A stretch of DNA of 63,791 bases, counting the filler, from Collodictyon triciliatum (taxonomy: Eukaryota), in assembly GCA_043381765.1 (NCBI GenBank). It is 17 parts of 17 records of this genome, joined end to end, with 100 filler letters (N's around TTAATTAATTAA, not from the genome) between each part and the next. Parts side by side here need not be neighbours in the genome. Positions count along the whole stretch, not along the records: positions 18,799 to 22,454 come from JBHJMP010007035.1; 16 more parts are not named here. One strand, 5' to 3'. Positions 3,760 through 52,397 of this stretch are shown here, piece by piece (the stretch's first letter is position 1; each line of letters begins with the position of its first letter). A program made the position numbers and the translations under genes. The notes below the pieces were generated by a model. That model saw nothing but the letters and a program-made list of their open reading frames with translations, was not told where the DNA came from and searched no databases.

Positions 3760-6700
3760 CGCTGGATATTTTCATGTCTGCCCTGGGTGAAAATCATCCG
3801 AATGTTGTGGCCTGCTATGAAATGATTGGAGACATCAGCCATGATTTGAAGGAGTATCTCTTTTTATAAATTATTTTTAATATTTAATCGAAAAGAATAA
3901 TGTATTTACTCATATTATCCTAGCTTTAAGGGTGCTCTGGAGGCATATACGAAAAAGCTGGATATTCGCATGAGAACATTGGGCGAAAGACATGCTGATC
4001 ATGCGACTTCACTTGAAAATGTTGGCAGAACAAACTTTGACCTTAAAAGGTAATTTCTCTATTTGTTAAAAAAAATCGAATACATTTATTAATAGTTATG
4101 AAAAAATACATTGAATAATAACTAATATACATGTATTTAGATTGGACCAAGTCGTGGAATACTTCCGGAAGGCAGCTGCTATCAGAAAGGAGACTAAGAC
4201 AATCATATCACTGAAAGACACCCATCAGATTGACAACATTATCCGACTCATGAAGAACGAGAAAGAGCACGAAGCAGTCATTCAGCTTTACAAAACGGCT
4301 GCTGTTAGACATGGTGAAAAGTCATCCTATGAAAACTGGGACTGCTGGGTGGCTTGTGAGAATATAAACAAGACTTACAAGGAACTGAAGCAGCATAACG
4401 AAGCAGTGGCATTCTGGACTGATATGAGAGACAGATTCGCAGATAAACTCGGATGGATTCACTCCAGAACATTAAATTCATGCGAATACTTGTCCGTCCA
4501 TTCAAAGGAGATTGGAATCAACAAAGAGCCTGTCGAGTTTACGAGAGTCAAGGAATTCATCTGTGAAACTCTTGATGATGCAAAGCTGGATGAGGAATGG
4601 AATCGTGAACAAATAATCGCATCATTATTCAGAATTGTCTACATGTCAAAGACTGATGAGAGCAAATCAAAGGCTGCATCTGATGCAATCACACTTTTGA
4701 ATTTCATGAATATTTCGTTTGCTGGAATGGATTTATCAAACATCAAAATTCCACATGCAAATCTCAGTAATTCAACCCTTGATGGTGCAAATTTTGCTGG
4801 TGCCAACTTGGATGGTGCTGACTTCACGAATTCGATGCTTGGTGATTGCATTTTTGATAAAGCAAATATGAATAATTTGAAATTAGGAATTCCTCATAAT
4901 AAATTGGAAGGACATACAAATGATGTCAATAGTGTTTGCAGTATTCAAGGACCGAATGGTGAACATTGGTTGGCTTCTGGAAGTGCTGATAAAACAATAT
5001 GTATTTGGGATGTAGCGACAGGAAACCAAATCAAAACATTAGAAGGTCATACAGATTTTGTCACTAGTGTTTGCAGTATTCAAGGACCGAATGGTGAAAA
5101 GTGGCTGGCTTCTGGAAGTTGGGATAGAACAGTACGTATCTGGGATGTAGCCAAAGGAAACCAATTCAAAACATTAGAAGGTCATACAAATTGGGTCAGG
5201 AGTGTTTGCAGCATTCAAGGACCGAATGGTGAAAATTGGCTGGCTTCTGGAAGTGGTGATAAAACAATAATTATTTGGAATGTAATCACAGGAAATCAAA
5301 TCAATACATTAAAAGGTCATACAGGATGGGTCACTAGTGTTTGCAGTATTCAAGGGCCGAATGGCGAAAACTGGTTGGCTTCTGGAAGTCGTGATAAAGA
5401 TAATACAATACGCATTTGGGATGTAACCACAAGAAATCAAATCAATACATTAAAAGGTCATGAAAGTTTTGTCAGTAGTGTTTGCAGTATTCAAGGACCG
5501 AATGGTGAAAAGTGGTTGGCTTCTGGAAGTGCTGATAATACAATACGTGTTTGGGATGTAGCCACAGGAAACCAAATCAAAATATTAGAAGGTCATATAT
5601 GGGCTGTCAGCAGTGTTTGCAGTATTCAAGGACCGAATGGTGAAAAGTGGTTGGCTTCGGGAAGTCGGGATAATACAATTTGTATTTGGGATGTAGCCAC
5701 AGGAAACCAAATCAAAATATTTGAAGGTCATACAAGTACTGTCATTAGTGTTTGCAGTATTCAAGGACAGAATGGTGAAAATTGGATGGCTTCTGGAAGT
5801 TGTGATAAAACAATACGTATCTGGGATGTAGCCACAGGAAACCAAATCAAAATATTAGAAGGACATACACAATATGTCAATAGTGTTTGCAGTATTCAAG
5901 GACCGAATGGTGAAAATTGGTTGGCTTCTTCTGGAAGTGAAGATAGAACAGTACGTATCTGGGATGTAGCCACAGGAAATCAAATCAAAACATTAGAAGG
6001 TCATACAGAATCTGTCAATAGTATTTGCAATATCCAAGGACCGAATGGTGAAAGTTGGTTGGCCTCAGGAAGTGCTGATAAAACAATACGTATCTGGGAT
6101 GTAGCCACAGGAAACCAAATCAAAATATTAGAAGGTCATACAGATTCTGTCATGAGTGTTTGCAGTATTCAAGGACCGAATGGTGAAAAGTGGCTGGTTT
6201 CTGGAAGTCGTGATAAAACAATACGTATCTGGGATGTAGCCACAGGAAACCAAATCAAAACATTAGAAGGACATGGAGATGCTGTCAGCAGTGTTTGCAG
6301 TATTCAAGGACCGAATGGCGAAAAATGGCTGGCTTCTGGAAGTCTTGATAACACAATACGTATTTGGGATGTATCCACAGGAAACCAAATAAAAATATTA
6401 GAAGGTCATACAAGTTATGTCAATAGTGTTTGCAGTATTCAAGGACCGAATGGTGAAAAGTGGTTGGCTTCTGGAAGTTGTGATAACACAATACGTATTT
6501 GGGATGTAGCCACAAGATACCACATCAAAACATTAGAAGGACATACACGTTATGTCATGATTGTTTGCAGTATTCAAGGGCCTAATGGTGAAAAGTGGCT
6601 GGCTTCGGGAAGTACTGATAAAACAATACGTATTTGGGATATTGCCTCTGGAAACCACATCAAAACATTAAATGGACATACAAGCGATGTCTGGAGTATT

Positions 6701-7418
6701 TGCAGTATTCAAGGGCCGAATGGAGAAAAATGGTTGGCTTCGGGAAGTGCTGATAAAACAATACGTATTTGGGATGTAGCCACAGGAAACCCAATTAAAA
6801 CATTAGAAGGTCATACATATGCTGTCAAAAGTGTTTGCAGTATTCAAGGACCTAATGGTGAAAAGTGGCTGGCTTCTGGAAGTCTTGATAAAACAATACG
6901 TATCTGGGATGCAGCCACAGGAAACCAAATCAAAACATTAAAAGGTCATACAAATTGGGTCTTTAGTGTTTGCAGTATTCAAGGGCCGAATGGTGAAAAG
7001 TGGCTGGCTTCTGGAAGTCGTGATAAAACAATACGTATTTGGGATGTGGCCACAGGAAACCCAATTAAAACATTAGAAGGTCATACATATGCTGTCAAAA
7101 GTGTTTGCAGTATTCAAGGACCGAATGGTGAAAACTGGGTGGTTTCTGGAAGTCGTGATAAAACAATACGTATCTGGGATGTAGCCACAGGAAACCAAAT
7201 CAAAACATTAGAAGGACATGGAGATGCTGTCAAAAGTGTTTGCAGTATTCAAGGACCGAATGGTGAAAATTGGCTGGCTTCTGGAAGTCTTGATAACACA
7301 ATACGTATTTGGGATGTAACCACAGGAAACCAAATAAAAATATTAGAAGGTCATACAAGTTATGTCAATAGTGTTTGCAGTATTCAAGGACCGAATGGTG
7401 AAAAGTGGTTGGCTTCTG
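3760..7418 (+). CDS. TPR + pentapeptide-repeat + WD40 protein with highly conserved internal repeats (NLR/HNWD-like sensor), partial at both ends
   Basis: Upstream exons encode KLC-type TPRs (LGENHPNVVACYEMIG; RTLGERHADHATSLENVG). The main ORF from 4142 has a pentapeptide block (ANLSNSTLDGANFAGANLDGADF) followed by 18 complete and 1 partial 45-aa WD40 repeats. Confidence 0.9.
4904..7418 (+). repeat. Coding tandem array of 135-bp WD40 units
   Basis: GAAGGTCAT occurs at 5042 and 5177 (period 135). The core TGCAGTATTCAAGGACCGAATGGTGAAAA is nearly invariant across units. Confidence 0.95.
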
Positions 7419-8797: not shown

Positions 8798-11185
8798 ATG
8801 AAAATGAGAATGATATCTATGGCTGCAATAGGTAAGTCATAAATTCATACATTTTTTCAAAGCTGCAGTCGTAAAATTGAAATTTTGACGTAGGAATCGC
8901 AGTTGTGTGGCAAGTTGTATCAGTTCATTGTCAAGTATCCTCAATTTACACAGCTGGAACTGGGCATACAAATGCTGTTTGGGAGGTATCAGCGACAACA
9001 GACGGTTCGAAGATTATTTCTGGAAGTTGGGATAATACAATTAAAGTTTGGAATCTTATGGATGGCACTTTAGTTCGGAATTTTGTTGGGCACACAAGTG
9101 GTATATTTAGTATAGCTTTTGCTCCTGGTGGTTCAAAAATTGCATCTGGAAGTGGTGATAAAACGATTAAAATTTGGAACTTTGCTGATGCTTCTTTGAT
9201 CCGCACCTTAGTTGGTCACTCTGCTGAAGTTTGGAGTGTGGCAGTCTCTCAGAATGGTACAAACATTATATCGGGAAGCAGAGATTGGACATTGAAGATT
9301 TGGAATTTTTCTGATGGGACTTTGATCCGTACACTAACTGGTCACACTAATATTGTTGAAAGTGTCGCTGTGACACCTGATAATTCCAAAATTATTTCAG
9401 GGAGCAGGGATTGGACGATGAAAATTTGGAATCATTTTGATGGAGCTTTGATTCGCACAATAGTTGGTCATTCGAATTGGGTTCGCAGTGTTGCTGTAAC
9501 GCCTGATGGACTCAAAATTGTCTCCGGTAGCTTGGACACAACAATCAAAATATGGCATCTATCCAACGGCACAACAATTCACACGTTAAAGGGACATTTG
9601 GATTCTATATACAGCGTAGCTATTACAACAGATGGTTCCAAAATTGTTTCTGGATCTTGGGATAGAGAAATAAAAGTTTGGAATATTATTGATGGGACTT
9701 TGATTCGCACCATAGTTGGCCATTTAGGTCCTGTGTACAGTGTTGCTGTCACATCTGATGGTACCAAGATTATATCTGGTAGTGGAGATCGATCTGTGAG
9801 ACTATGGAATTTTTCCGATGGAAGTCATATATACTCGAGAGGCTCCTTGATTACAAGCACTGTATCATCAATCACAAAATCGATCATCGTTTCAGCACAT
9901 TCAGACCACACAATTAGACTATGGAATATTACAAATGGATTTATGATTCAATCATGGTCTGGCCATTCCGATACCGTAAATACAGTTACTTTTACTCCTG
10001 ATGGTTTAAAAATCGTATCTGGTAGTGTTGATAAAACAGTTAAAATTTGGAGTGTTGATTATGGACATTTGCTTGAATCTTTCTCACTGCATTCTGAGTC
10101 TATCAATTCAGCTATTATCTCCCTTGATGGTACAAAAATTGTATCAGGAAGTAGTGATAAGACAATTAAAATATCCTCAATTTTGGATGGAAGCTTAATG
10201 CGCTTATTGAACGGACATACAGCCTCAGTTACAAGTGTTGTGATTACTCCTGATAGCTCAAAGATCATTTCTGGAAGTACAGACAAGACAATCATGATAT
10301 GGAACTTAGCAGATGGTTCATTAATTCAACGTCTTAATTTTCATACGGACCCTGTAAATTGTTTGGCTATAACTGTCGATGGAACTCATATTATTTCTGG
10401 AAGTAGTGACAAAACAATCAAGATAGCGAAAATATCAGATGGAAATTTAATTCGCTCGTTGAATGGACACACTGGAATAGTGAAAACTGTAGTAGTCACG
10501 ACTGATGGTTTGAGGGTTATATCTGGTAGTAGTGACAACACAATAAGACTATGGAATTTGTTGGAAGGTGTTACCATTGATATAATAGCGGAACACACAG
10601 CAACGATTAACGGAATATCTGTTCTATCAGATGCTACCAGATTTCTCTCTGTAAGTGATGATACAACTATCAAATTGTGGAATTTTCCTGATTTCAGTTT
10701 GATTTTGACAGCTTCAGGCCACACAAATTCAATAAATAGCATTTTTTTAAGCTCAGATAAAACAAAAATTGTTTCAGGAGGTAGTGACAACTCGATAAGA
10801 ATCTGGAATTATGCTGATGGTTCTCAAGTATTGTCGATAAATTTTCATACGAGTGCTGTGAATAGTGTCATTGTTTCGAGTGATGGAAAGAAAATCGTTT
10901 CAGGAAGCAGTGACAAAACTGTAAAAATGTGGAATTTCTCAGATGGCGTATTATTAAGAACACTAAGTGGCCATACCGCAGCTGTTCGGAGCGTTGCAAT
11001 ATCATTAGATAATTCTGTTATTGTATCAGGAAGTGATGACATGAATATTAACATTTGGAGTGCCTCAAATGGAACTTTAATTCGATCAAATTTTGGGCAT
11101 ACAAAAAGTGTGAATTCTGTTTTTATCATTCCAGATAATACCAAAATTATATCTGGTAGCGCTGATTTTTCTATAAAAATATGGA
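8798..11185 (+). CDS. WD40-repeat protein with predicted N-terminal signal peptide; exon 1 8798-8831, exon 2 from 8894; 3' partial
   Basis: The GTAAGT...TAG intron at 8832-8893 joins MKMRMISMAAI in frame to GIAVVWQVVSVHCQVSS. About 17-18 GH...WN-type 42-aa repeats follow. Confidence 0.85.
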
Positions 11186-11341
11186 NNNNNNNNNNNNNNN
11201 NNNNNNNNNNNNNNNNNNNNNNNNNNNNNTTAATTAATTAANNNNNNNNNNNNNNNNNNNNNNNNNNNNNNNNNNNNNNNNNNNNCCTTCTTTTTTTTTT
11301 TTGATTTTCACATTTCCTTCAATTTTAATGAGTTATTTTAG

Positions 11342-13899
11342 GTACAATCCCAAACTTCTCAAATTTGAGAAAACTGGAGATTTTTTCTATCTATGAGAAT
11401 CAGTTGGAAGGAGAGATTCCAGATTTCAAAGGTTGCGACAAAGTCAAGGAAATATTGTTGTTTCGAAATAAGTTGTCAGGTACATTGCCGATGTTCAATC
11501 TTAATAACCTGACAAGACTGGATGTGAGTGAAAACCAAATCACTGGCTCTATACCAGAAAATTGGATATTGCCTTCAATTAAATACATCGACTTGTCTTG
11601 GAACAAAATGAACGGCACAGTTCCAACCTATTTTCAGGGACTGTCAGAACTGAAATCACTCGTTTTGTCTCACAATAAATTCTCTGGAAGCATGCCTGAT
11701 TCATTCTGGAATCTGCCGAATCTAGTCACTATTGATTTAAGAAACAACTCGTTTTCAGGAGATGTCGGGTTTTTTATTGTTCCAACTTCAGGCAAATACG
11801 ATTACTTTTATGAAAACTTGTTGCTTGATGACAACCAACTCTATGGAGCATTGAATCATCGGATTTTTGACTTCGTCCTCAGCATAAAAACATTAAGCCT
11901 TAAAAACAACAAAATCACTAAGCTTGATGAACTTACAAATTTATTGAGGTGGACTTCCCTTGACCTCACTGGAAATCCGATCGTTGGAAGCATTCTCGAA
12001 TCATATAGAGGATTTTCAAAGCTTGAGCATCTGGGATTGAATAAAACATCCATGAATCACGGAACTGCTAATTTTCTTCCTGATTTCATGAATTTCACAA
12101 CATCTTTCAATATTCAAGACGAAACAAAACGCTATTTGTGTCCTTCCATTATTTCGAAATCTGGTCTGATTGAATTAGATGTTGACTTGAATCCAGAATA
12201 CTATGATTTTGAATTTTGTAAATGCTTGCCTGGATATTTCGGTTTTGGAAATAACTGCGTTCAATGTCCAAGAGGATGTGACTGCCTTGATGGAACATCC
12301 TTGAAATTCTGTCATGCTTCACCAAGCATTACCTCTGTGAAATCAATACTGCCGTGTCCACGTCGCGAGTCATGTGATGTGTCGATTCCAGAGAAAAATT
12401 CGAATTCAAGTGCGACGGTCGAAATCATAGACCTGTGTCAAGAAGGCTATGAAGGTAATGCCTGTTCAAAATGTCAGAACGGATACGGTAATCAAGGAAG
12501 GTCGTGTGTGAAATGCGATAAAGGAACGATTTATTCTACCCTGATTCTTGGTTCGATTGGATTCTTTATGTTCATTTGCTATCTGTATTTCACAGAGACA
12601 TCAAAATCAGGTAAATTTTATTTATTCTTTTAATTTTATAATTCCTATGCTAATCAGAATATTTATGTAGCGAAACTCAGAATAATCATGTTTCACATGC
12701 AAACACTGTCGATTGTGTCTAGTGGACTCATTCTTTCAGAAGATGCAAACAACTTTATTGATGTCTCATCGTCCATCGGCTCAATCCAATTTCCCAACCT
12801 TTCCTGTGTCCTTGGAGTAGACGATGTGTTTGTTTCTCTGATGTTCAGTTTTGCAAGAATACCAATCTTCATAATTGTTGGCTCAGCTACGTACTATTTC
12901 GGATATGGGCACAAGCAGAACAAAGTAAGGAGGAAAAATACTAATAATTGTAAATTCATCATATTTGTTTCCGTTTCATCTTTAGTAATTCTAAAAAAAA
13001 TATTTTGGCAGGCCGTTTTCATCACATTGAATCTTTTGTTTTTTATATACTACTCGGTCGCAAGAGAGGTGTTTGGTGTTTTTGGATGCACCATTTATGA
13101 CGAAGGTGTGAATAAATGGTATTTGAATTTCAAGCCCTGGATTCAATGCAGCCCAGCCTCAGATGAATATCAAAAACTGCTTGCAATATCTTTCCCGGTT
13201 TTCGTTGTTTTCTTGGTAGGTCTGCCTGCTTTTGTATTGTGGAAAGTGAAAATCATGGCAGAAAGACCAGGATACGAACCAGGAGCGCGATATGGATTCA
13301 TTTACCTGCCATACAAAGAGGTATGTGATTCCATATTCTTTCTTTTTTAATCATCAATTGTGAATTTTTTATGAGATTAATGTTATTTAGACCTTCAAGT
13401 ACTGGGAGTTTGTCATAATCGCACGCCGCATCGCTTTTTCGTTTGTGCTCAGTGTCGTTCCATACACAAGCCCAGCGGTTTTTTTCGTCCTCCTCATCAT
13501 CGCTATTCAGGTCGATTAAATATTTATTTATATGGTGCAAAATATGAGATAATTTTTTGAAAATGAAATACTAAATCAAACACAAACTATTAGGGCTCAA
13601 TTTGGATGCAAAAAGAATACAAGCCTTACAACTCGAAAATCGAAAATCAAATGGAAGTGTCCAGCCTCTACATCATTTTTTTGTCCTTTTTTATTTCGCT
13701 AATGTCGACTCTTTTTAACTCGCAATCGTGGATTACAGCTCTGCTTATTGGAATGAACTCAGTATGGCTGCTTTATTTTGCGTCAATCGCTTTTGTGATT
13801 CCTCTTTTCAAAAGCGGCGAAATCAAACAAAAATTGGTCAAGATGAAAAATTTGAAGAAAAGGCAATCTTTTGACCCCTTTTCAATAATAAATAAATGA
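11342..13899 (+). CDS. LRR + Cys-rich ectodomain + multipass (about 7 TM) membrane protein; 5' partial; exons about 11342-12610, 12671-12924, 13012-13320, 13391-13510 and 13594-13899
   Basis: Plant-type LRRs (LxxLDLSxNxLxGxIP), then a Cys-rich CxCLPGYFG...CQEGYEGNACSKC segment, then hydrophobic helices with KLRIIMFHMQ, RYGFIYLPYK, YWEFVIIARR and KPYNSKIENQME motifs typical of protist multipass receptor-like proteins. Confidence 0.8.
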
Positions 13900-15065: not shown

Positions 15066-18000
15066 GAATAATCATGTTCTCTACTGGAGTGAACGTTGAG
15101 ATTCCAAAAAATGCAATCAAAGTTGATGAGGTAGGAACTAAGTGTGAACAATCATTTTTATATTCTCTTTTACCGTAAATTATAGATGGATTCTCATATT
15201 ATGATTACTCAGGTCTCTTCTGGCTGGACCTCCCATCAACCTGACCGCCCAACAGCTGGAAAATATAACGTAACGAATGACGTCGATGAGACATCAGATT
15301 TCCTCAGGTTGATTAAAAGGCTCTTCGATGTGTGCTCTGTTTGCCACAAACCATTCAAATTTTCGTTTTTCGTTTATTAATGAACGATATGATATTTCTC
15401 ATTATATTTTATCATCCTTATTATCCAATAAATAATTATATGAATGAAATAGTCCTTGTCTTCTGGATGGTGACCGTGAAAGTGCGTATGACGGAAAAAT
15501 TCGAGATGATGTTCACGGAGGGGTTAACGAACATACAAGTAATCGATGTAATCTTTTGATTTATTACCATTTTGATATTGAAGTGAACTGTTCTAATTCA
15601 TATCAAATACAAGGCCACTGTCAATATTTAGATAAAGCTGTTTCGATGATAGATGAACATGAAAGGAGCAGTCAAACTGCTATTCGGTCACTGCCACCAG
15701 ATTACCTTGGAAAGGGATTGTACTCTGAGCTTGTTATCCTTCCAAACATCCACCCAAATGTCCTGGATGATGAAATGTGCTTTAGAGAGTCCATCAATTA
15801 TGCATTTCGTGCTGATAAAGTGTACGAGGTGCGTTCAAATTCTAGAGGAGGGGGATGCACTGTATCACGCTCATCAAGGAAAAGAGTTGCTCCTGCTAGA
15901 ATTCCAACTACTGAACCAAACATTACTACCACTGAAAGTTTACAAATTCAGCCGCTTGTTGACGGGATGTCGAGGATTACCGCAGCAAACTCAACACCTG
16001 GTTCAAGTTCACCAAATATATCCTTGCAACTGACCCAGGTGCTGACGTCTCAGTTATTGATGAGCCCTACCAAGGAAGAGGATATAAAACTCGTTGAACG
16101 CCTTGTTGCGCTTCATATTTCTTTAGTTGAGAGACAGACTCAGAGCCTACGTGAACAATCTGACATTGCTGAGAAACAAGCAGCTATCCAGACTCAGACT
16201 CAACGAGAACAGGCAGCTATCCATACTCAGAGCCTACGAGAACAAGCTGCTATTGCTGAGAGACAAAGTGAATCAAACCAAAAACTGATTCAAAGCCTTA
16301 TTGACCAAGTCTCACGGCTGCCAGCATCTCAGCAAACTCCGCAAGTGATTGATTCATTGGTGCGCGCTATTTCGCCACAAGGAGCATATTCGAGCTCTGT
16401 CCAAACAAATGCAGCTATGTTTTCAAGCACGCTGCAATCGCAACTCCATGATAATCTTGTCACCAATACAAAGCAACAATCCGGCGTTAATATAACTCCC
16501 ACAACTCAATTTTTTCCAACAAATCCTGTTGCTGTTCAACCAAAACCTCACGATGCTTCGCAAAACCCACCTGAGCAAGTAGCAACACCGGCAACACTGG
16601 CATCAAATGCGTCTAGAGCAAACCAACCGACAACACAGCCCGCTGGCAGTGCAACAGAGTCTTCACAGATTGTAGGGAATACAAATACCCAAGAAAATGC
16701 TGGACTAATTGACTTAACAAATGTTTCAGGAGAAACTTATACTAATGCTTCCGAGCTCGCCAAAGCCATATCTGAACAACGAGACCGACATTCTGGAAAG
16801 AATACCTATACAAAAAGAGCTCTTCGCATAATCAAGCTATTCATGAAGGAACAAACCGCTTGGGATGAGAGCTTGGATGAACTCACTGCACTGGCCCCGG
16901 CAAGAGACAAACTCATTTCAGAGAAGCTGATAACCGCTATTGGCGCAATTATGGATAAAAAAGTGGAGAAGCTGGATCGTTTGCTAGATGCTTTGAATAT
17001 CGTTGTGGGGAACACACTTAAGGAGGATTTCGACCACACGCTGCTTGCTCAAGTTCTAGATATTCTGATAGACCGTGTCGGAACTATCTTTGCTTCGGAC
17101 GAGGCTTTATGTCAAAGGATATTGGACAGTCTGATTTCAATTCTGAATTCGCTATGTATTTCTGGCGCATCAGGAATTTCTGAAGAAAAATACAAAGCAT
17201 ACAAAGAGATGTTTGACCAAAGCTGGATTGACAAGAAAACTGAGACTCACGGGGAAGAAATCGATAATAAGATGAAAATTCAATATGCTCAGGCCAAGAA
17301 ATCTTTGTTCTGTGAGCTACTGAAGCATATCGGCGATGGCCAGAGTCCAGTCGTGAAGAATCTGAAAATAGCTGGCAAAGTTGGACTTGGTTTGTTTAAC
17401 GCTGCATCTGCTGCTTTCTCTTTCGACATCAGCGGCACTCTGGCATCATTGCAGGAGGTTGCCACCGCTGTTGGAGAAATCGACATCAAAAAGGATTGGA
17501 TTACATTCTATCAAAAATTTCGCGTCAGTTTATTCGTCAGTGTTGATAAAGCTAAAGAGGAATGGGATTCTCAATTTTCAGGAAAGAAGGACAAAGTTGG
17601 AGAAACTCTGGCATTTATTATCATCGACACGATTTTTGAATGCTATCTCCACAAATACAATAACTCTGAGGGACAAAAAGTTCGCGAATTGATGGAGCAT
17701 ATCACACGTCATGAAAAATGGTCTAAAAGCGAGGTTATTAACCAATTTGTGGAATCAAAAAAGCAAGATTTGGCAGAATATAAGCCAAAAGAGTCAAAAT
17801 TACCTACTGCACTTTTCGAAAAGGCTGGTAAAGACGAAAGAACGATTCAAGACATCATCGAGAATATCAAGGAAGAAACCGTTCGAAATGAAGAATTCAA
17901 AAGTCGTTTTAATACATACATTCCCGGTCAAGCCGAAAGAATTGCTGAGAAAGGAAAGAAATTTGATGTCCAAGAACACATCCTGGATTTTTTTAAATAT

Positions 18001-18698
18001 GGAAATGAAAAAGTGCTGCTCATACTTGGCGACTCTGGCTCTGGAAAATCACTGTTACAGCAGTTTATTGTGCGATTGCTTTGGAAGGAGTATGAATACG
18101 GAAAGACGCATATTCCTTTGTATGTTGCGCTTACTTCATTGGAAAAGCCCAGAGAAAATGCCATCGAAGAACTGCTTCTTTCTGAGAGTAAAAACAGCTT
18201 CTACATTACAGACTCTGATTTCCGAAAAGATCAAATCAAAGAACTGAAAAAGATGGAATTCATCATTTTCCTGGATGGTTATGATGAGATTGAAGATAGT
18301 GGAACATCCTTTTATATTTCAAATAAGCTTGAAGAATGGCCCAACTGCAAGTTTGTCATTGGATGCCGCAAGCAGTTTTTGGACAAAAAATCTCAGTACC
18401 AATCACTTTTTGCACCCAAAGCTAGTCATGGATACTCTCTGGATGAAATATATCTGAGACCTTTTGAAACGAAACAAAGACTTGATTACTTCAACAAGTA
18501 TGCTGAGAGAAATCCCATCGAAGGATGGGAAAAAGGAGAAAAGTATGAGGAAGAGTTGAAGAAAATTAAAGAACTGGACGAATTGGCCGTCACTCCGTTT
18601 ATGATTTTCATGGCAGCCACCACCCTGCCGTCTATACTGAAGGAAAGAGTTGAGTCGAAGTCGAATTTTAATGCAAAAATCCTGCGAACAGACTTTCT
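15066..18698 (+). CDS. NACHT-domain (STAND) NTPase, NLR-like; small 5' exons then one long exon; partial at both ends
   Basis: Walker A GDSGSGKS (18028-18051), Walker B FIIFLDGYDE (to 18288), then KFVIGCR and TPFM motifs. Upstream GT-AG exons (15066-15130, 15186-15308, about 15453-15538) splice in frame into the long ORF. Confidence 0.88.
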
Positions 18699-19026
18699 NN
18701 NNNNNNNNNNNNNNNNNNNNNNNNNNNNNNNNNNNNNNNNNNTTAATTAATTAANNNNNNNNNNNNNNNNNNNNNNNNNNNNNNNNNNNNNNNNNNNNTT
18801 TTTCTTTTATTTTCTTTTATTTTCTTTTATTTTCTTTTATTTTCTTTTATTTTCTTTTATTTTCTTTTATTTTCTTTTATTTTCTTTTATTTTCTTTTAC
18901 TTTCTCTTTGGTTTCATTCAGCCTGTAAATGGATAAAGTTCATTGCAAAGGTTATGACGAATTTGGTTTTGTCCCTTTCAAGCACAACACTTTTTATACA
19001 ACGAAAGTGCGCACATATACATCGAT

Positions 19027-19465
19027 TTATGGCACAGACAACCACCGAATTAAATCTGGATTGAAAAAAGCAGGAGCTTTGGTGAATCCAAGAAGCAACC
19101 TGAATAATATTATAGTATATTTAATAAATGTAATAGGGTTAAAAATAATTAACAATCTCATTTTATTCCTGGAATCAATTTAATTTTATTTTCCATTATG
19201 TGATATTAAAGCTCAAAAATGAAAAACAATCCCTTGCCTTGGCCCAGACAGAACCCACCCCATAAACCTGCCACCAAACATGCATTTCAAAAAAGCATAC
19301 TATCCGCACTTGCGGCGGTAATCATGTCGTTTGGGGCCAATATCTTGAATTTCAGTCGCAATGGCCATACGGCTGTCCTTTCGAACTCACCGAATCAGCT
19401 CTCAGCGTTTTGTCTCAAATCAGATATAAAAAACTTTGTGTGTTTGTTTGCCAGAATGCGCACAT
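19027..19465 (-). pseudogene. Small divergently oriented, apparently spliced cargo gene in the Fanzor element left arm (copy 1)
   Basis: The minus strand reads RMAIATEIQDIGPKRHDYRRKCG*YAFLKCMFGGRFMGWVLSGPRQ and, after a TTCAG acceptor, LLLGFTKAPAFFNPDLIRWLSVP*. Many differences from copy 2 are synonymous. Confidence 0.55.
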
Positions 19466-19569
19466 TTTGAAAGTCTCGGTAAATGCTTAGTTTTACCTGA
19501 ATTGATTTTGTGCTGTTTTTTTTATTTTTATTTTTAAATTGACTGATTGACTAAAGTTTTATTGAAATT

Positions 19570-21490
19570 GAAAAATCGGTAGTTTTCTAAAGGAATAATT
19601 AAAACAAAGACTTTCAGATAGAGAAAAGGAAACGTCTTGAGTTTGAGAATCTGAAGTCTGTAAAACCAGGCTATCGAAATGTGAAAACATATCTAAAACC
19701 GATTGTAAAAAAACGCAGACATCTATGGCAAAATCAACAATACGGCTTTATTGTGTCATAATTTGGTTACCGACACTTATCTGTTTGCAAGATGCTACAT
19801 ATTTAAATCAAAACAACTCCCAACAATCGATAAAAAGTTTTTTTTTTCGTACGCTTCAAAGACAGTCGGAGTAGTTTCACAAGATAGACCCACAAGATTA
19901 AAAAAAAAAAACCAGATATTAGAGATGACATGATGACTATTTATCCCAATGATTTTCAATTCCTTTTGTCCCGAGAAGAACACTTTCCGTTGGTTGGACT
20001 GTCTCATGTATTACCGTAGTTGGCGAAGCTAATGCTAACAGCTTATCATTATAACATTAAGGAACATTTTGTAAAGAGGATACTGCGCTTTATAAATCAA
20101 GCAGTTCCTAAAAATGAGAATGATGGAAGCTAGTAAAAAGGTAGAGTTACGAAAGTTAAAAAAAAAAAGCCATCTTCGAGAAACTCGAAATACCGAAACA
20201 ATATAAAGGATGGACTATGACGCATTTGCATCGTATCATTCCCAGCGATATTGTAAATGGTATCAAATATATCGCCAAAGTCAATCCAAATAAGTACATT
20301 CCATGTCTGATTTACATGAATCGCATTTTTGAGGACATTGGAACTAAACTGCTTCAACCAATCTCTATAAGAACTAACAATATACAATGTCATATTACTC
20401 TAGATACTGCATGTTTGATAGGTATTAGTATTGTCTGGAAAACATCATTAATGAAGAATATATCAGGATGCAAAGAGACCCTATGGGATGAGTACTTTGA
20501 AATGAAGAAGAGGGTCTTTCATTAAAGAGATTATAATTTTAAATACATGATACAAACAGACGGCTCGGCGGTGTCATTATTGTTTGAAAAGAAAGGTATT
20601 TCAAATTCAAAATACCAATATAACCAAAAAATAAAACCAAGAATATGTTTATACAGATGAACTTTCCGAAGAGCAGTTATCTTTATAAGCGAAAAAAAAA
20701 ATATAGTTGGAGTGGATGCAGGCAAGTTTAGTTTGGTTTACATGGTGGATGAAATAGGCAGGTAAGAAATTACGTTACACGGCACACCAAAGAAGACATG
20801 ATAGCAAATCTCTTAAAAAACACAAAATACTATTCCGCGAGAAAGAAATAAGTACGATGCTTCATGGATATACATGGCAACAGATTTACAAAGTGCTATT
20901 TCTTTTGGTCTCATGACTTTTGAAGAGAATCAGCAGTTTGAGACATCAAGGGTTTCTTTAATCGATTCAGAGACAAAACTGAGTAAACTTGATTCATGCA
21001 CGTCGATTATGATAAATTTCGAGAATATGTATCTATGAAATTAAGATACCAGATAGAATTATCCAGAGTTTATGAACGAATAACTTTTCGAAAGATGATA
21101 TGGAGACAGATTGTTAATACAAAAAGAAGTGAGCAATTGTTTATGGAACAAATCGAAAAGACATTTGGCAAGGATGTTGGACTGGTGTATGGAGACTGTA
21201 GCAGAAAATCTCAGATGAAGCATTTTATGACAACAATCGGAAGAGGATTACGAAAAATGCTATCCAAACGTTTTGAAACAGTTAGTGTAGATGAATTTAG
21301 AACCTCCAAGATGTGCTGCAACTGCGAAAAAGAACTGGAATATGTAACACTGAAAGAAAATTCAAAAAAGTTGTGCATAGATTTCTCATATTTAAAGAAT
21401 GAAATCGGTCAGAAAGCAAACAAAGTGTATTCTTGATAAGGGACTTTAACAGCGCTAAAAAAATATACTCAAGAAAGTTCTTTTAATCCT
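19570..21490 (+). pseudogene. Fanzor1 (TnpB-derived RuvC nuclease), frameshifted
   Basis: N-terminal VKTYLKPIV...INNTALLCHNLVTDTYLFARCY...LPTIDK and a YMIQTDGSAVSLLF motif. RuvC-I IVGVDAG (D at 20715-20717), then FRKMIWRQIVNTKRSE and YGDCS. RuvC-II plus zinc finger VDEFRTSKMCCNC (E at 21293-21295). RuvC-III LIRDFNSA (D at 21442-21444, shifted frame). Confidence 0.9.
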
Positions 21491-21796
21491 TCAAAAAAAA
21501 AAAAGCATACATGCACATCTAAAAAAAACAGGCTGTCGGGTCTTTCCTGGCAGCTTCCACCACTACACGATCCTTGTGAAAAAAGAGGTGAGAACTTGGA
21601 TACTATCGGACCAGGTTTATCAATCGAAAGATGGTATACCCCTCCTAGTATAAACGAGAGAAAATTATTCGCAACCTCAAATGACACCCTGGAAAGAAGG
21701 CGACTATTTGAATCCGGATTCAAACGACCCCGACAAATTCAAATGTACGAATCGGCGATGGCGGTGTGCTTGAAAGTCCGTCCTGTGAGCCAAGTG
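21490..21796 (+). ncRNA. Candidate Fanzor omegaRNA scaffold (to about 21776) plus putative guide flank
   Basis: Lies directly 3' of the Fanzor ORF. Contains a GAAA-tetraloop hairpin at 21614-21640 and an 18-bp palindrome at 21707-21724, and ends at the inverted repeat (..GCTTGAAAG). Function is inferred from Fanzor/TnpB biology. Confidence 0.5.
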
Positions 21797-21918
21797 CAGT
21801 CCGGTGGCATTGCGCTTTCGACACAAACCAGCGAAGGCTGCACGGGGGTCTTTTGTTTGTGAAGTGTGTGTTCTTTTTTGCGTGTTTTTCTTTGTGCTTT
21901 TTATTTTATATGTCTTTG

Positions 21919-22008
<90 letters not shown>

Positions 22009-22016
22009 GTTATTGT
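21919..22016. repeat. (TAT)n microsatellite
   Basis: Directly visible; source of the poly-I, poly-Y and poly-N ORFs. Confidence 0.95.
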
Positions 22017-22554
22017 TATTGTTATTATTTTTCTTTTGTTCTTTTAGGAACGGTTTTGGGTTGTATTTTTTTTTAAAAAAAAAACTTTGGGAGTGAACAT
22101 TTTTTGGGTAAATATTGTTGATCTCTGGAGGTAACGCCTCGTGTCCTCGCACTTGGCGGTCGTCCCTTTTTACAGTCACTCGGGGTTAACTTGATGGAAC
22201 TCTTCCTCTTTCCCTTTTTATTTTCTTAGACAGTGAAATATATTTGTGAAATAAATATTTCCTAGAAATACTTATTCCTCCTTCTTTCTCTTCGTTCCTT
22301 TCCATTTCATTCCTTTTCTTTTGTTTTCTTTTGTTTTCTTTTGTTTTCTTTTGTTTTGTTTTCTTTTCTTTTCTTTTCTTTTCTTTTCTTTTCTTTTCTT
22401 TTCTTTTCTTTTCTTTTCTTTTCTTTTCTTTTCTTTTCTTTTCTTTTTTTTTCTNNNNNNNNNNNNNNNNNNNNNNNNNNNNNNNNNNNNNNNNNNNNTT
22501 AATTAATTAANNNNNNNNNNNNNNNNNNNNNNNNNNNNNNNNNNNNNNNNNNNN

Positions 22555-37020: not shown

Positions 37021-37053
<33 letters not shown>

Positions 37054-38518
37054 CTTTTTTTCTTTTTTCATTTTTTCTCTTTTTCTCTTTTTCTACTTTC
37101 TATTTTTCTCTTTTTCTCTTTTTCTCTTTTTGTCTTTTTCTCTTTTTCTCTTTTCTTTTTTATTCTGTCCTCTCTTTATTCCTCTTTTTCCTTCTTTTTT
37201 CTTTTATTCTTTGTTTCTTTGTTTCTTTCTTTATTTCTTTATTTCTTTATTTCTTTATTTCTTTATTTATTTATTTATTTATTTGGTTGGTTGGTTGGTT
37301 CTATTAGTTTGTTAGCTTGTTTGTTTTGTTTTGTTTTGTTTGTTTTGTTTTTTGCTTTTTGCTTTTTGCTTTTTGCTTTTTGCTTTTTGTTTTTTGTTTT
37401 TTGTTTTTTTGTTTTTTTGTTTTTTGTATTTTTGTTTTTTTTTGTTTTTTTTGTTTTTTTTTGTTTTTTNNNNNNNNNNNNNNNNNNNNNNNNNNNNNNN
37501 NNNNNNNNNNNNNTTAATTAATTAANNNNNNNNNNNNNNNNNNNNNNNNNNNNNNNNNNNNNNNNNNNNAGAAAGAAAAAGAAAGAAAAAGAAAGAAAAA
37601 GAAAGAAAAAGAAAGAAAAAGAAAGAAAAAGAAAGAAAAAGAAAGAAAAAGAAAGAAAAGAAAGAAAAAGAAAAAAGAAAACAAAAAAAGAAAAGAAAAG
37701 AAAACGAAAAAGTCAGTGGGAACACGACAACTGTTTTAAGAACTCGCAAGGAAATGATCTAAAGATCGAGCTTTTCTGTCATGCCGAGCAAAAAAGAAGA
37801 AAAAGAAAAAGAGAAAAAAAGAGACTCAGACTCTGCGCTTATCGACAAGGCAAAACTCAGATACAGTCTTCCGTGTTGCGAGCGTGAGCGGCATTTGAAT
37901 CGACCGTAACAAGCAGTGAACAAGAAGCAACGAGCCAAACACGCGGACTTTTGTAGTCCTTTTCTTTTCTCCTCTCGTTTGGAGGTGTTATTCGAACGAA
38001 AGAAAGTGTAGGCGGGATATGACAGATGGCATCATAAACAATGATTACAAAGGAAAGAAAGAAAGAAAGAAAGAAAGAAAGTCACTATCATCGATATGAT
38101 TGGTTGTGCAAGATTTAATGTGTGATTGATAATGTTGCAAACGATAGTTGTTCTTTTCTTTGCGTCGCTGGGTTAGGTTGGGGTGGATTTACAGGCTAGT
38201 TGGAGAGTTGGATGGAAAGAGTGGGCGGTGTGGAACTGGGAGATGTAATAAAAAAAAAATATAGTAATCATTTGCTTGGTGATAAGACGCGGGTCTGTGT
38301 CCTCTTCATTTTCTAAATGCCCATATCTAAAGCGAATAAAAAAAAAAACTAAAAAAATAATTAAAAACCATCACAAAAACCATCACAAAAACTATCACAA
38401 AAACTATCACAAAAACAATCACAAAAAAACAATCACAAAAAGCATATTTAGATCAATATTTAGATGTTTACAAGGTAAGGCATCGAAAAACAAATGTGAA
38501 TTTGCGCACACCAGAGCC

Positions 38519-41195: not shown

Positions 41196-42164
41196 GAGCC
41201 ATTTCCTATTTTTTTGCTTTNNNNNNNNNNNNNNNNNNNNNNNNNNNNNNNNNNNNNNNNNNNNTTAATTAATTAANNNNNNNNNNNNNNNNNNNNNNNN
41301 NNNNNNNNNNNNNNNNNNNNAAAACAAAAAACAAAAAACAAAAAACAAAAAACAAAAAACAAAAAACAAAAAACAAAAAACAAAAAACAAAAACCAAAAA
41401 CCAAAAACCAAAAAACAAGAACCAAAAAACAGAAAACAAAAACAAAAAAAAAAAAAAAACAAAAAACAAAAAACAAAAAACAAAAAACAAAAAACAAAAA
41501 ACAAAAAACAAAAAACAAAAAACCAAAAACCAAAAACAAAAACAAAAAACAAAAAACCAAAAACCAAAAAACAAGAACCAAAAAACAGAAAACAAAAACA
41601 AAAACAAAAAAAAAAACATCGCTCGAGTGCAGGAAAAATCGTTCGGAAAAATGGGAAGCATTGCCCTTTTTTAACAAGCACAGAAAATAATAGTGATTGA
41701 GAGGAAAAGAGCCTGGCCTTCGTCGACACGCTTTCAGTAACATACCTTTGCCCATTATTGCTTGGGAAAAAGCAGAACCAAAGAGGAGACAGAGACAATA
41801 TTTCTTTTCTTCGATCCGCTCCCTTAAATCAGGTCTCACCATGTGTAAAATATTAATACTGAAGTTAAAAGAATTCCCCTTCTCCCATCCTGGATATTCG
41901 TATTTGCGTGTAAAATGATAAATACAAATATATGAACAAGAAAAGTAATACCAAATAATTGTACCAAATGTAAAGGAGCTATTGAATCAAATGACTTGTC
42001 CTCATTATTTGGTATTGATAGGAATTATTATTTTTTTGAAAAAAAGGAAGTACTACCCCCGGTTGCCTGTTAAAAAAAAACTGCCGAAATATCTCGCCCA
42101 AGATCTCTGTATGTATTTCAATCTATGATTGAGATATCCTAACATTTTTCCTCCTCTTATTTAG

Positions 42165-48546: not shown

Positions 48547-48920
48547 GTAAACTTTGCATCGCATGAGAAAAAAATCTCAGTTTTTTTTACTATTTAATGT
48601 ATATGAAATAAACAAAATCTGACAAAATCAGTTTATATTTCTTTACTTTTCTATTATTTTCCTTTTCTTTTCTTTTCTTTTCTTTTCTTTTCTTTTCTTT
48701 TCTTTTCTTTTCTTTTCTTTTCCTTTCTTTTCCTTTCTTTTCCTTTCTTTTCCTTTCTTTTCCTTTCTTTTCCTTTCTTTTCCTTTCTTTTCCTTTCTTT
48801 TCCTTTCNNNNNNNNNNNNNNNNNNNNNNNNNNNNNNNNNNNNNNNNNNNNTTAATTAATTAANNNNNNNNNNNNNNNNNNNNNNNNNNNNNNNNNNNNN
48901 NNNNNNNAAAAAAAATAAAA

Positions 48921-48981
<61 letters not shown>

Positions 48982-49071
48982 CAAAAAAAGGAAAAATAAA
49001 AAAAGGAAAAATAAATTAAGAAAGCAAGAGAAAAAGATATAAAAAGGTATTAAAAAAAAAGTAAAATTTAC

Positions 49072-52000: not shown

Positions 52001-52397
52001 TATGTTAACTAGTGTTCTTTCCTCTTTTTTTTTCTTATTTATTTTTTATGGAATAAAATTATACTGTGTATCTTTATAAAGAAAAAATTGCATTATGAGA
52101 TCGATGAAAGCATATTTGATTTTCTGTATTAAGAAAAGATAAATCAAGTGATTAATACATCAATATATCAATATATTCGATAAGTAAAAAGAACCGAAGA
52201 TGAAGGGAAGCTTAGAATCCATTCAGGCTTGGATATCCATAGTATTTGATGAATGATGTCATGCTTCAACTGTGTTTCGTTCGATTCTAGATCATCGCAC
52301 ATTATAGCTATTAATGAGAAAATGTCTTCATGGTACCCAGCCATAGCTTCATCAGGAGTCCAATCTAGCCTTTTAAGACAGTCAATAAACCACTCCT
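49072..52397 (-). CDS. RNF213 (mysterin)-like giant AAA+/E3 ligase, internal fragment (post-AAA into E3 region)
   Basis: Exon 52397-52197 reads AMAGYHEDIFS...ILWISKPE; next comes YFEKQSHEDL; the 1007-aa ORF contains WHHVYLDSI, TLRNAIFSKIIEQIATELSALIDIIYCHENLLVL and FPFSSII. These occur in the same order as remembered RNF213 motifs (FIGYHSD, YFHRQRH, WQSVHIDDL, TFRHTLW...IDRDGNLELL, VPFSW). Confidence 0.7.

Follow-up and report, generated by a model that had tools for sequence, protein, structure and literature searches.

What kind of gene lies broken across several reading frames on one contig (JBHJMP010007035.1) of the protist Collodictyon triciliatum, and what kind of mobile DNA carried it there? 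We analysed this contig as part of a window, i.e. the whole stretch of 63,791 nucleotides of joined contig pieces, to which all positions given here refer. Fanzor1 proteins are eukaryotic and viral relatives of TnpB that cut DNA at sites specified by a guide RNA, itself derived from the 3' end of the same element. The region from 18914 to about 21648 (henceforth copy A) is very probably a dead copy of a multi-copy, transposase-less eukaryotic DNA element, whose sole gene belonged to the PGv-1-like Fanzor1 branch known from giant viruses. Its features, together with a second copy (copy B), are listed in Table 1.

Table 1. Coordinates of the element and its parts within the window (copy A, except for the last line).
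Feature	Positions	Strand	Basis or remark
Copy A, about 2.74 kb	18914..21648	+	left, likeness to copy B starts; right, X1/X3 pieces stop
5' non-coding part	18914..19617	+	common to copy B at 77–90% identity per 100 nt
Fanzor1 pseudogene	19618..21608	+	frameshift-aware alignment to P0004; profile scan
RuvC-I, GVDAG	20709..20723	+	aspartate codon 20715–20717; aligns to relatives' invariant D-P-G
Lineage-specific insert after RuvC-I, about 45–50 residues	20845..21000	+	missing from P0004
YGDCS, canonical RuvC-II place, glycine for glutamate	21188..21202	+	G nearly invariant in relatives
VDEFRTS, relocated RuvC-II glutamate	21287..21307	+	glutamate codon 21293–21295; column E101 invariant in relatives' alignment
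CCNC, first cysteine pair of zinc finger	21314..21325	+	sequence reading, alignment to P0004
FLIFKE followed by a stop, decayed second cysteine pair	21382..21402	+	relatives read CLVCNGC
RuvC-III, RDFNSA	21439..21456	+	R and D invariant or nearly so in relatives
Gene 3' end and 40-nt tail; guide-RNA scaffold site expected by analogy	21450..21648	+	fold z-score; hairpin 21531–21555
Copy B	26306..28766	-	85% identical to copy A over 2553 nt

Identity and decay of the gene

An open piece of 147 amino acids inside copy A (20993–21433) had 1322 matches at E<=1e-3, the strongest at 2.3e-36, in an exhaustive search of 1.84 billion proteins, a likeness far beyond chance. A word-indexed protein search for longer proteins with the same query found none. 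The piece also matched the solved Fanzor1 chains of Parasitella, Spizellomyces and Guillardia (E 5.4e-10, 6.8e-5 and 0.06), and the piece upstream of this frame matched the Spizellomyces structure at E 0.0015. A family profile built from 23 full-length relatives (630 positions) recovered the Parasitella, Spizellomyces and Guillardia structures at E 6.6e-79, 4.2e-77 and 1.7e-58, over positions 3–605 of the 630. In a six-frame scan of the window (19 sequence blocks) with this profile, only the contig of copy A and that at 26306–29963, which holds copy B, scored; every remaining block gave E above 0.1. Copy A was covered by profile positions 3–600 of 630, in pieces of alternating frame (the best with 159 and 154 bits), and a frameshift-aware alignment to an intact relative of 634 residues, P0004, gave 42% identity over 615 positions.

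The preliminary description had called this a Fanzor1 nuclease gene, and the frameshift-aware and profile searches bore it out: the likeness extends over the full length, and the family profile matches the Fanzor1 structures. Judged by sequence likeness, 19618–21608 is the remnant of a Fanzor1-type gene and not of a Fanzor2 or TnpB gene, and the ancestral gene once encoded a Fanzor1 nuclease of about 650–680 residues. Fanzor2 and TnpB (ISDra2 type) do share with it the split RuvC domain with zinc finger and, by homology, the RNA-guided mechanism, and the only Pfam match of copy A is to a model common to these proteins, the Cas12f1-like TNB domain, albeit weakly (E 0.006). Even so, we give practically no credence to contamination with an IS605/IS607 remnant or a bacterial TnpB, or to a Fanzor2, given that the family profile matches three Fanzor1 structures nearly full length. 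The next-best structures were TranC (E 0.025) and a chain named 'Transposase' (E 0.84), both over the zinc-finger stretch only, and apart from these no Fanzor2 or TnpB chain matched the profile at E<=10. There is also no IS607 or IS605 context here.

The motifs to which the preliminary description had pointed (GVDAG, VDEFRTS, RDFNSA, CCNC and a decayed second CxxC) are all present, spread over three different frames. Bao and Jurka (2013, PMC3627910) give the Fanzor1 core motif as D-X(125,275)-[TS]-[TS]-X-X-[C4 zinc finger]-X(5,50)-RD. In copy A the corresponding elements are D at 20715–20717, TS at 21302–21307, CCNC at 21314–21325 and RD at 21439–21444; the spacing from D to TS is about 195 residues, so that order and spacing fit the core motif, with the second cysteine pair mutated. 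Another trait of Fanzors, as described in PMC10530073, is a glycine or proline at the canonical RuvC-II place and a conserved glutamate further on. Copy A has both, in YGDCS and VDEFRTS, at columns that in the relatives are nearly invariant (G) and invariant (E), and its glutamate aligns to the DEF/DEY of the Parasitella and Spizellomyces Fanzor1 proteins; the relocated glutamate is not specific to Fanzor1, because it is common to Fanzor2 and some TnpBs as well. Copy A keeps an active-site layout of the Fanzor type (D, G at the old glutamate place, relocated E, D), and copy B likewise reads DAG at RuvC-I. An insert similar to that of copy A is found in the closest fragment, P0002, while some copies in the public run X3 skip 20752–21002. 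Both copies carry a basic run, KRKR, after the start; PMC10530073 reports an N-terminal nuclear localisation signal in about 60% of Fanzors.

Copy A is a dead pseudogene of a Fanzor1 family, without a working open frame. It has lost its start (ATA at 19618–19620, where copy B has ATG) and the second zinc-finger cysteine pair, and has four in-frame stops (20017, 20523, TGA at 20658–20660, and 21400) and, relative to P0004, about 11 frameshifts, as the preliminary description of a frameshifted gene had anticipated. The stop at 20523 is private to copy A: the other copies read C there, with a depth of 56.1 of 56.1 in X1 and 196.7 of 223.9 in X3. Copy B kept its start ATG (28052); its contig runs out within the gene, near residue 554 of 634, and the reading frame is disrupted by about 8 frameshifts and by 2 or more stops, at sites that differ from those in copy A. 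As they stand, both window copies are unable to yield a protein.

Could the gene be intact in the organism and the frameshifts be errors of sequencing or assembly? Of the roughly 11 frameshifts inferred, 6 are by our own reading within or next to stretches of at least five A, and the true number may be lower because sequencing error is possible at such runs. Nevertheless, all four in-frame stops come from base substitution, the start codon reads ATA and two zinc-finger cysteines now read F; the set of lesions in copy B differs from that of copy A, and several indels, among them a difference of 4 nt at 20755, fall outside homopolymers. An intact gene is, on this evidence, extremely improbable.

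Extent, copies and mobility of the element

The preliminary description had set the ends at 18914 and 21776. The left one stands, being the point where likeness to copy B begins, and the right one was about 130 nt too far out: contig pieces from the two public data sets X1 and X3 stop within 21628–21652, depth falls to 0 in the bin 21729–21829, and we took the CTAG at 21645–21648 as the nominal right end. Near 21776 the sole inverted match spans 12 nt, has its partner 60 nt inside the left end and reaches a score that 3 of 300 shuffles also attain; an inverted-match search with this shuffle control found no terminal inverted repeats in copy A. Around the left boundary the bases are GGTT|TC for copy A and TGAA|TC for copy B; two left ends and a single right end were available.

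The 5' part has stops in all six frames in both copies. No Pfam match was found in 18914–19617, and its DNA likeness to 160 relative loci consisted of just 20–33-nt matches at chance level. Skipping joints in this part, one of them with GT..AG ends, were considered as introns and rejected, because comparable skips occur in a DNA metagenome and the A+T-rich spots concerned also carry indels in copy B.

The element is a multi-copy, diverged repeat family. Besides copy B, contig pieces aligning at 80% likeness or more numbered 471 in X3 and 184 in X1, although the depth of assembled contigs is not copy number and metagenome pieces possibly come from related organisms; X3 is possibly an RNA run. 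Raw reads of a further run, X5, sampled to about 3%, gave no alignments. The family status suggested in the preliminary description is borne out by the 85% identity of copy B and by these hundreds of diverged pieces.

The same description saw no transposase, and neither did we. In the flanking parts, none of 10 small open frames had a Pfam match at E<=0.01 (DUF6979, E 0.047, was the one match listed), and tblastn with the DDE_3 transposase of a relative gave only E 0.5 and 7.3, both in other contigs, and nothing in either copy. The two copies seen can fairly be called 'non-autonomous' and would have moved by means of an enzyme supplied in trans. As for the rest of the window, a neighbouring contig carries a NACHT gene whose closest named homologues, at about 30% identity, are those of Mortierella-group fungi, and elsewhere there are a 1032-aa frame for which no homologue was found and a 419-aa frame resembling FG-GAP clusters of mixed taxa.

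One form of such mobility, compatible with the main reading, is that of a non-autonomous, Helitron-type rolling-circle transposon with a captured Fanzor1. Helitron ends (5'-TC and CTRR-3') and Fanzor1-carrying Helitrons (CRe-1/2/3 of Chlamydomonas) are described in PMC3627910. A Helitron of this sort would also be expected to have a subterminal hairpin near its 3' end, to be inserted between A and T, and to have a RepHel partner that shares its ends. Our element lacks inverted ends, begins with TC at 18914, preceded by A in copy B, and the family likeness ends in CTAG (21645–21648) followed by T (21649), with a hairpin at about 21614–21640, just before the right end. This hairpin is, however, weak and A+T-rich, TC and CTRR are short and easily met by chance when the boundary is known within a few bases only, and T rather than A precedes TC in copy A. 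With one right end and two left ends to go by, and no RepHel gene in the window, we regard a Helitron as possible but unlikely.

Giant-virus relatives and a putative guide RNA

The closest intact relatives are PGv-1-like Fanzor1 genes of Tc1/mariner transposons on giant-virus contigs, with 42–57% identity. Of 599 IMG/VR stretches 513 encode relatives, as do 566 of the 599 stretches from metagenomes, and among the 80 listed IMG/VR loci we counted 26 with 'GVMAG' in the contig name. In a protein tree, copies A and B join with support 100 and fall within a 20-row clade (support 98), which holds all 5 IMG/VR cluster representatives; the tree comes from a quick search under a simple model (LG+G4), and the window branch is long (0.71). 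The phylogeny against giant-virus homologs proposed in the preliminary description places the window copies among them.

The element shares this branch with the giant-virus PGv-1 type (PMC3627910) and its many relatives on IMG/VR giant-virus contigs; among these relatives, identity is 42% over the whole gene to the 634-aa form, and 43–57% over the 147-aa piece. The two are alike in length class, basic N-terminus and active-site layout, and the PGv-1 protein given in Additional file 3 of that paper, compared by eye, has the same motifs as copy A. A motif search of parts of the supplement found no near-identical protein, one of six motifs occurring in an unrelated sequence. In contrast, the giant-virus elements have inverted ends of 33–39 nt and TA flanks, a DDE_3 transposase homologue in 51 of the 96 loci with enough upstream DNA (DDE_3 being assigned by Pfam on one locus), and a covarying 3' hairpin in which 10 of 16 pairs show compensatory changes, all of which the window element lacks. 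It has instead the extra insert of about 45–50 residues, and is a decayed multi-copy family in DNA of cellular type.

These differences also bear on whether the contig might be giant-virus DNA, integrated or contaminant, rather than carry a transposon of the cell's own, as the nearest intact relatives on giant-virus contigs could suggest. We consider this very unlikely. Apart from the missing inverted ends, TA flanks and 3' hairpin, the contig has no other viral gene, and its flanks are microsatellite-rich with 35% G+C, like the other contigs of the window. Copies A and B differ by 15% and each has its own lesions, an old genomic repeat would account for the diverged pieces found by the hundred in public runs, and two conserved blocks of the element had no exact match in IMG/VR.

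The preliminary description also noted that Fanzors are guided by an omegaRNA encoded at the 3' end of the element; in copy A such an RNA is at most putative. The fold of the 3' region of copy A is only mildly better than that of shuffles (z -2.1). A covariance model built on the 3' RNA of the relatives, which recovers that RNA in 28 of 30 other loci, had no match at 21400–21700, its best hit in the window (E 0.35) lying at an unrelated place. Rfam (gathering score and E<=1) and a tRNA scan gave no match in the window, and DNA likeness of the 3' part to 160 relative loci showed none of note.

Among other known systems, the solved Fanzor1 proteins (Parasitella parasitica 9cf0, Spizellomyces punctatus 8gkh and Guillardia theta 9cer) match by sequence in fold family and in the layout of catalytic residues. 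Their sequences are nevertheless distant, and they are active, with known guide RNAs, whereas copy A is dead. Nearer in lifestyle are CMe-1A of Cyanidioschyzon and the Helitron2 elements CRe-1/2/3 of Chlamydomonas, which PMC3627910 presents as transposase-less or non-autonomous Fanzor1 families. By description they resemble the window element in being old and multi-copy, with Fanzor1 as sole gene and many decayed copies; CRe genes have 5–10 exons, whereas introns were not seen in the window element.

Origin and meaning

Under the preferred reading of a dead, transposase-less Fanzor1 element, the intact ancestors would have been RNA-guided nucleases, with a guide RNA probably made from about 21450–21648 plus flank, and would have belonged to the Fanzor1 branch that is now mostly found in Tc1/mariner transposons of giant viruses. 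A bolder scenario, which we offer as a tentative and rather improbable one, is that a PGv-1-like Fanzor1 of the giant-virus branch entered the genome of a cellular eukaryote, parted there from its mariner transposon, spread on a new vehicle lacking inverted ends (possibly a Helitron-like 5'-TC...CTAG-3' element) and gained a different 3' RNA scaffold. If true, this would be a natural case of an RNA-guided nuclease switching both transposon and guide-RNA architecture after transfer from virus to host.

The find itself is ordinary, because Fanzor1 genes and decayed transposase-less copies have already been catalogued in many eukaryotes and giant viruses. It does connect a family of cellular repeats with the Fanzor1 branch of giant viruses, in keeping with published proposals that viruses have spread these genes. 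The different ends and the missing conserved 3' RNA, compared with the viral relatives, could show how such nucleases change vehicles, and, if the genome holds intact copies, these would be a further candidate for a compact RNA-guided nuclease.

Fanzor1 identity and decay of the gene

A profile built from 23 aligned full-length relatives matched three solved Fanzor1 proteins over nearly the whole length, those of Parasitella (6.6e-79), Spizellomyces (4.2e-77, positions 3–605) and Guillardia (1.7e-58), in agreement with the assignment to Fanzor1 in the preliminary description. The next-ranked matches were TranC (0.025) and then weaker rows at chance level, and no Fanzor2 or TnpB chains were listed in this search of solved structures. 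Run on all blocks of the window in six-frame translation, the profile covered the element under study (copy A) at positions 3–600 of 630, in frame-changing pieces spanning 19624–21504 (the best at 159 and 154 bits), and the contig at 26306–29963, which carries copy B, at positions 1 to 552; none of the remaining blocks gave a match better than E 0.1. A search of 1.84 billion representatives with the longest open piece of copy A (20993–21433, 147 aa) brought up 1322 proteins at E≤1e-3, 330 of them at E≤1e-10 and the best at 2.3e-36. Against solved structures this piece matched the Fanzor1 proteins of Parasitella (5.4e-10), Spizellomyces (6.8e-5) and Guillardia (0.06), and another (20160–20762, two stops read as X) matched that of Spizellomyces (0.0015). 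With Pfam alone, the Cas12f1-like TNB domain was the sole match, at E 0.006 and short of the model's cut-off.

The motifs named earlier are all present in copy A, spread over three reading frames. Jiang et al. (PMC10530073) describe Fanzors as having the canonical RuvC-II glutamate replaced, with a conserved glutamate further on, and copy A has this layout: a glycine in YGDCS and the later glutamate in VDEFRTS, both in columns that are invariant or nearly so in the relatives. Three single residues kept in a copy 85–90% like its siblings carry no information on function.

Frameshift-aware alignment to an intact 634-aa relative (P0004) placed the gene at 19621–21608 (42% identity, 615 aligned positions) with about 11 frameshifts, so the gene is indeed frameshifted as first described; it could be aligned without any intron. 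An insert of ~45–50 residues (20845–21000) is absent from P0004, and the nearest fragment, P0002, has a similar one. The alignment showed stops at 20017, 20523 and 21400; an additional TGA lies at 20658–20660 in the best-scoring frame, and the start codon of copy A (19618–19620) reads ATA, that of copy B ATG. By our reading, A-runs lie at or next to six of the frameshifts, which in principle may be sequencing errors; such errors cannot explain the stops, the lost start or the cysteine-to-phenylalanine changes.

Features of the window and, counted along their own loci, of two relatives' elements
Feature	Position	Strand	Remark
Copy A	18914–~21648	+	element under study
Copy B	26306–28766	-	
GVDAG	20709–20723	+	
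VDEFRTS	21287–21307	+	
CCNC	21314–21325	+	
FLIFKE*	21382–21402	+	CLVCNGC in relatives
RDFNSA	21439–21456	+	
NACHT NTPase frame	15448–18696	+	
WD40 protein frames (two)	4115–7417, 8881–11184	+	17–18 repeats
LRR frame	11332–12630	+	
Microsatellite contig ends (examples)	18800–18905, 22285–22454, 22560–23135, 37024–37469, 41321–41616		
Element in L001	174–3503		inverted ends beginning TACACCCTTGAAC, TA flanks
Element in L002	1341–4656		inverted ends beginning TACACCCTTGAAC, TA flanks

A repeat family and its giant-virus relatives

That the element belongs to a repeat family, as had been proposed, is borne out by copy B, which is 85% identical to copy A over 2553 nt, is interrupted by its contig end and has its own set of lesions (~8 frameshifts, at least 2 stops). 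Identity between the two copies is even along the element (77–95% per 100 nt), and this measure revealed no better-kept non-coding block between them. We also compared contigs from public sequencing runs with 18901–21915 at a cut-off of at least 80% likeness; parts of the element occurred in freshwater metagenomes and in one coded organism (X3). X3 gave 471 pieces (22, 101, 197 and 151 at ≥99%, 95–99%, 90–95% and <90% identity) and the freshwater metagenome X1 gave 184 (15, 33, 61 and 75), figures that are contig depths and not copy numbers, the metagenome pieces possibly coming from related organisms. Run X2 had one matching piece, and about 3% of the raw reads of run X5 had none. Even so, the pieces in X1 and X3 reveal a diverged family of many members. 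At 20523 nearly all other copies have C, and the stop there is private to copy A.

Fanzor1 is described as widespread in fungi, protists, arthropods, plants and giant viruses (PMC10432273). In pattern-guided scans, relatives were encoded in at least 566 of 599 metagenome and at least 513 of 599 IMG/VR candidate stretches; the best among the matches listed were 43–57% identical over the 147-aa piece. By our count, 'GVMAG' appears in the contig names of 26 loci among the 80 listed from IMG/VR, and all 20 relatives looked up derive from metagenome records. PGv-1 of Phaeocystis globosa virus (protein in PMC3627910 Additional file 3), which has the same motifs as judged by eye only, is the named member of the giant-virus relatives' group.

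For phylogeny we used 79 of 150 listed matches (≥480 aa) and locus proteins of at least 550 aa, reduced to 86 representatives by clustering at 70% identity; with the two window read-throughs (X at breaks), the tree had 88 rows (quick search, LG+G4). Copies A and B join with support 100 on a long branch (0.71), within a 20-row clade (support 98) that includes all five IMG/VR representatives. The three-way split inside this clade has no resolved order in the quick tree.

Element ends, possible vehicle and putative guide RNA

The element had been placed at 18914..21776, and of these two ends the left one stands. Likeness between copies A and B starts at 18914 (TCATTCAGCC), preceded in both by unrelated T-rich microsatellite. 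The right end lies near 21648 and not at 21776, since summed depth falls from 32 (X1) and 80 (X3) in bin 21527–21627 to 5 and 1 in bin 21628–21728 and 0 in bin 21729–21829, and the last listed public-run piece stops at 21652. Position 21776 probably originated from a 12-nt inverted match (18975–18986 against 21766–21777), whose score was reached by 3 of 300 shuffles and which is internal on the left and outside the family on the right. No terminal inverted repeat was found in the element. As inferred, the element opens with 5'-TC and closes with CTAG-3', next to which stands a T; a weak hairpin immediately precedes the 3' end. Such ends recall those of Helitrons, which are known carriers of Fanzor1 according to PMC3627910; with left ends from two copies and a right end from one, the resemblance is only a lead.

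Equally upheld is the absence of a transposase: stops occur in all frames across the 704 nt upstream of the gene in both copies, 0 of 10 flanking small frames matched Pfam at E≤0.01, and the DDE_3 transposase of a relative, used as query, found no match in the window. Among the viral relatives, loci L001 and L002 have 3.3 kb in common at 80% identity, with 33–39-nt inverted ends and TA flanks, and this unit is a Tc1/mariner-type element. On the 254-kb contig of L002 and L081, a 634-aa Fanzor adjoins a DDE_3 plus HTH transposase, DUF5755 and the ribonucleotide reductase small chain. Of 160 loci, 52 had a homologue of this transposase; counting only the 96 with 1400 nt or more of sequence before the Fanzor gene, the figure was 51.

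Several features lie beside the copies. The unique right flank (21649–21870) has G+C markedly above its surroundings, with a 140-aa open frame at 21440–21862; it gave no Pfam or Rfam match and no excess folding (z -0.4). Just upstream of copy B (~28870–28963, minus strand) there are two instances of a motif of ~22–30 nt (CATCG.CCCACGGGTAGCAAG), and in three X3 contigs nearly the same letters are fused directly to element position 19038, which points to a putative other repeat recombining with, or inserting beside, the family. At ~55 nt beyond the left edge of copy B, TTCATTCACCGTGT (~28820–28835, minus strand) resembles the first 15 nt of the element and could be the vestige of a further left end.

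A putative guide RNA is expected by homology with described Fanzors (PMC10432273, PMC10530073). Conserved at the 3' end of the viral relatives are a two-tier hairpin, which overlaps the end of the Fanzor gene, and a stem closing on the terminal bases; 10 of 16 pairs show compensatory changes. Of 30 further loci, some on the same contigs as training rows, a covariance model of this structure located it where expected in 28, among them loci without DNA likeness downstream of the gene. It found no match at 21400–21700, its best hit in the window (E 0.35) lying elsewhere. The 3' 261 nt of copy A fold only slightly above shuffles (z -2.1), and Rfam gave no match on the element. If it exists, the guide RNA would have a scaffold unlike that of the viral relatives. 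There is a testable, as yet unproven hint that this branch, once out of giant viruses, exchanged both its vehicle and its RNA scaffold.

Genomic setting and probable ancestral function

The window (35% G+C) is composed of 19 sequence blocks, mostly contigs of ~3.65 kb descending in size, and is not one chromosome stretch. Contigs are joined by spacers of the form N44-TTAATTAATTAA-N44 (e.g. 18699–18798, 22455–22554), so a frame that crosses one of them (15448..18750, for instance) is an artefact; two longer stretches of N occupy 90–802 and 31025–31527. Copy A is located on the contig 18799–22454. Most contig ends carry microsatellites, mainly of T- or A-rich units of 3–12 nt, and abundant simple repeats are evidently what interrupts the assembly. 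Other contigs each bear their own long intron-free frame (NACHT, two WD40, LRR), the nearest named homologues of the NACHT part being NACHT-WD40 proteins of Mortierella-group fungi (26–37% identity). A 1032-aa open frame (48911–52008, minus strand) had no Pfam family and no homologue of near length in a word-indexed search.

By homology, the intact ancestor would have encoded a nuclease of ~650–680 residues with a basic, probably nuclear-targeting N-terminus. It would have bound RNA transcribed from the element's 3' end into the flank, and the complex would have cleaved DNA of matching sequence beside a short motif; movement would have needed an enzyme supplied in trans. In TnpB systems such cutting aids persistence of the element after excision. 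Copies A and B are relics incapable of nuclease, RNA-guided or movement functions. The family call is correct, and the element is a dead and unremarkable representative of a kind already known.
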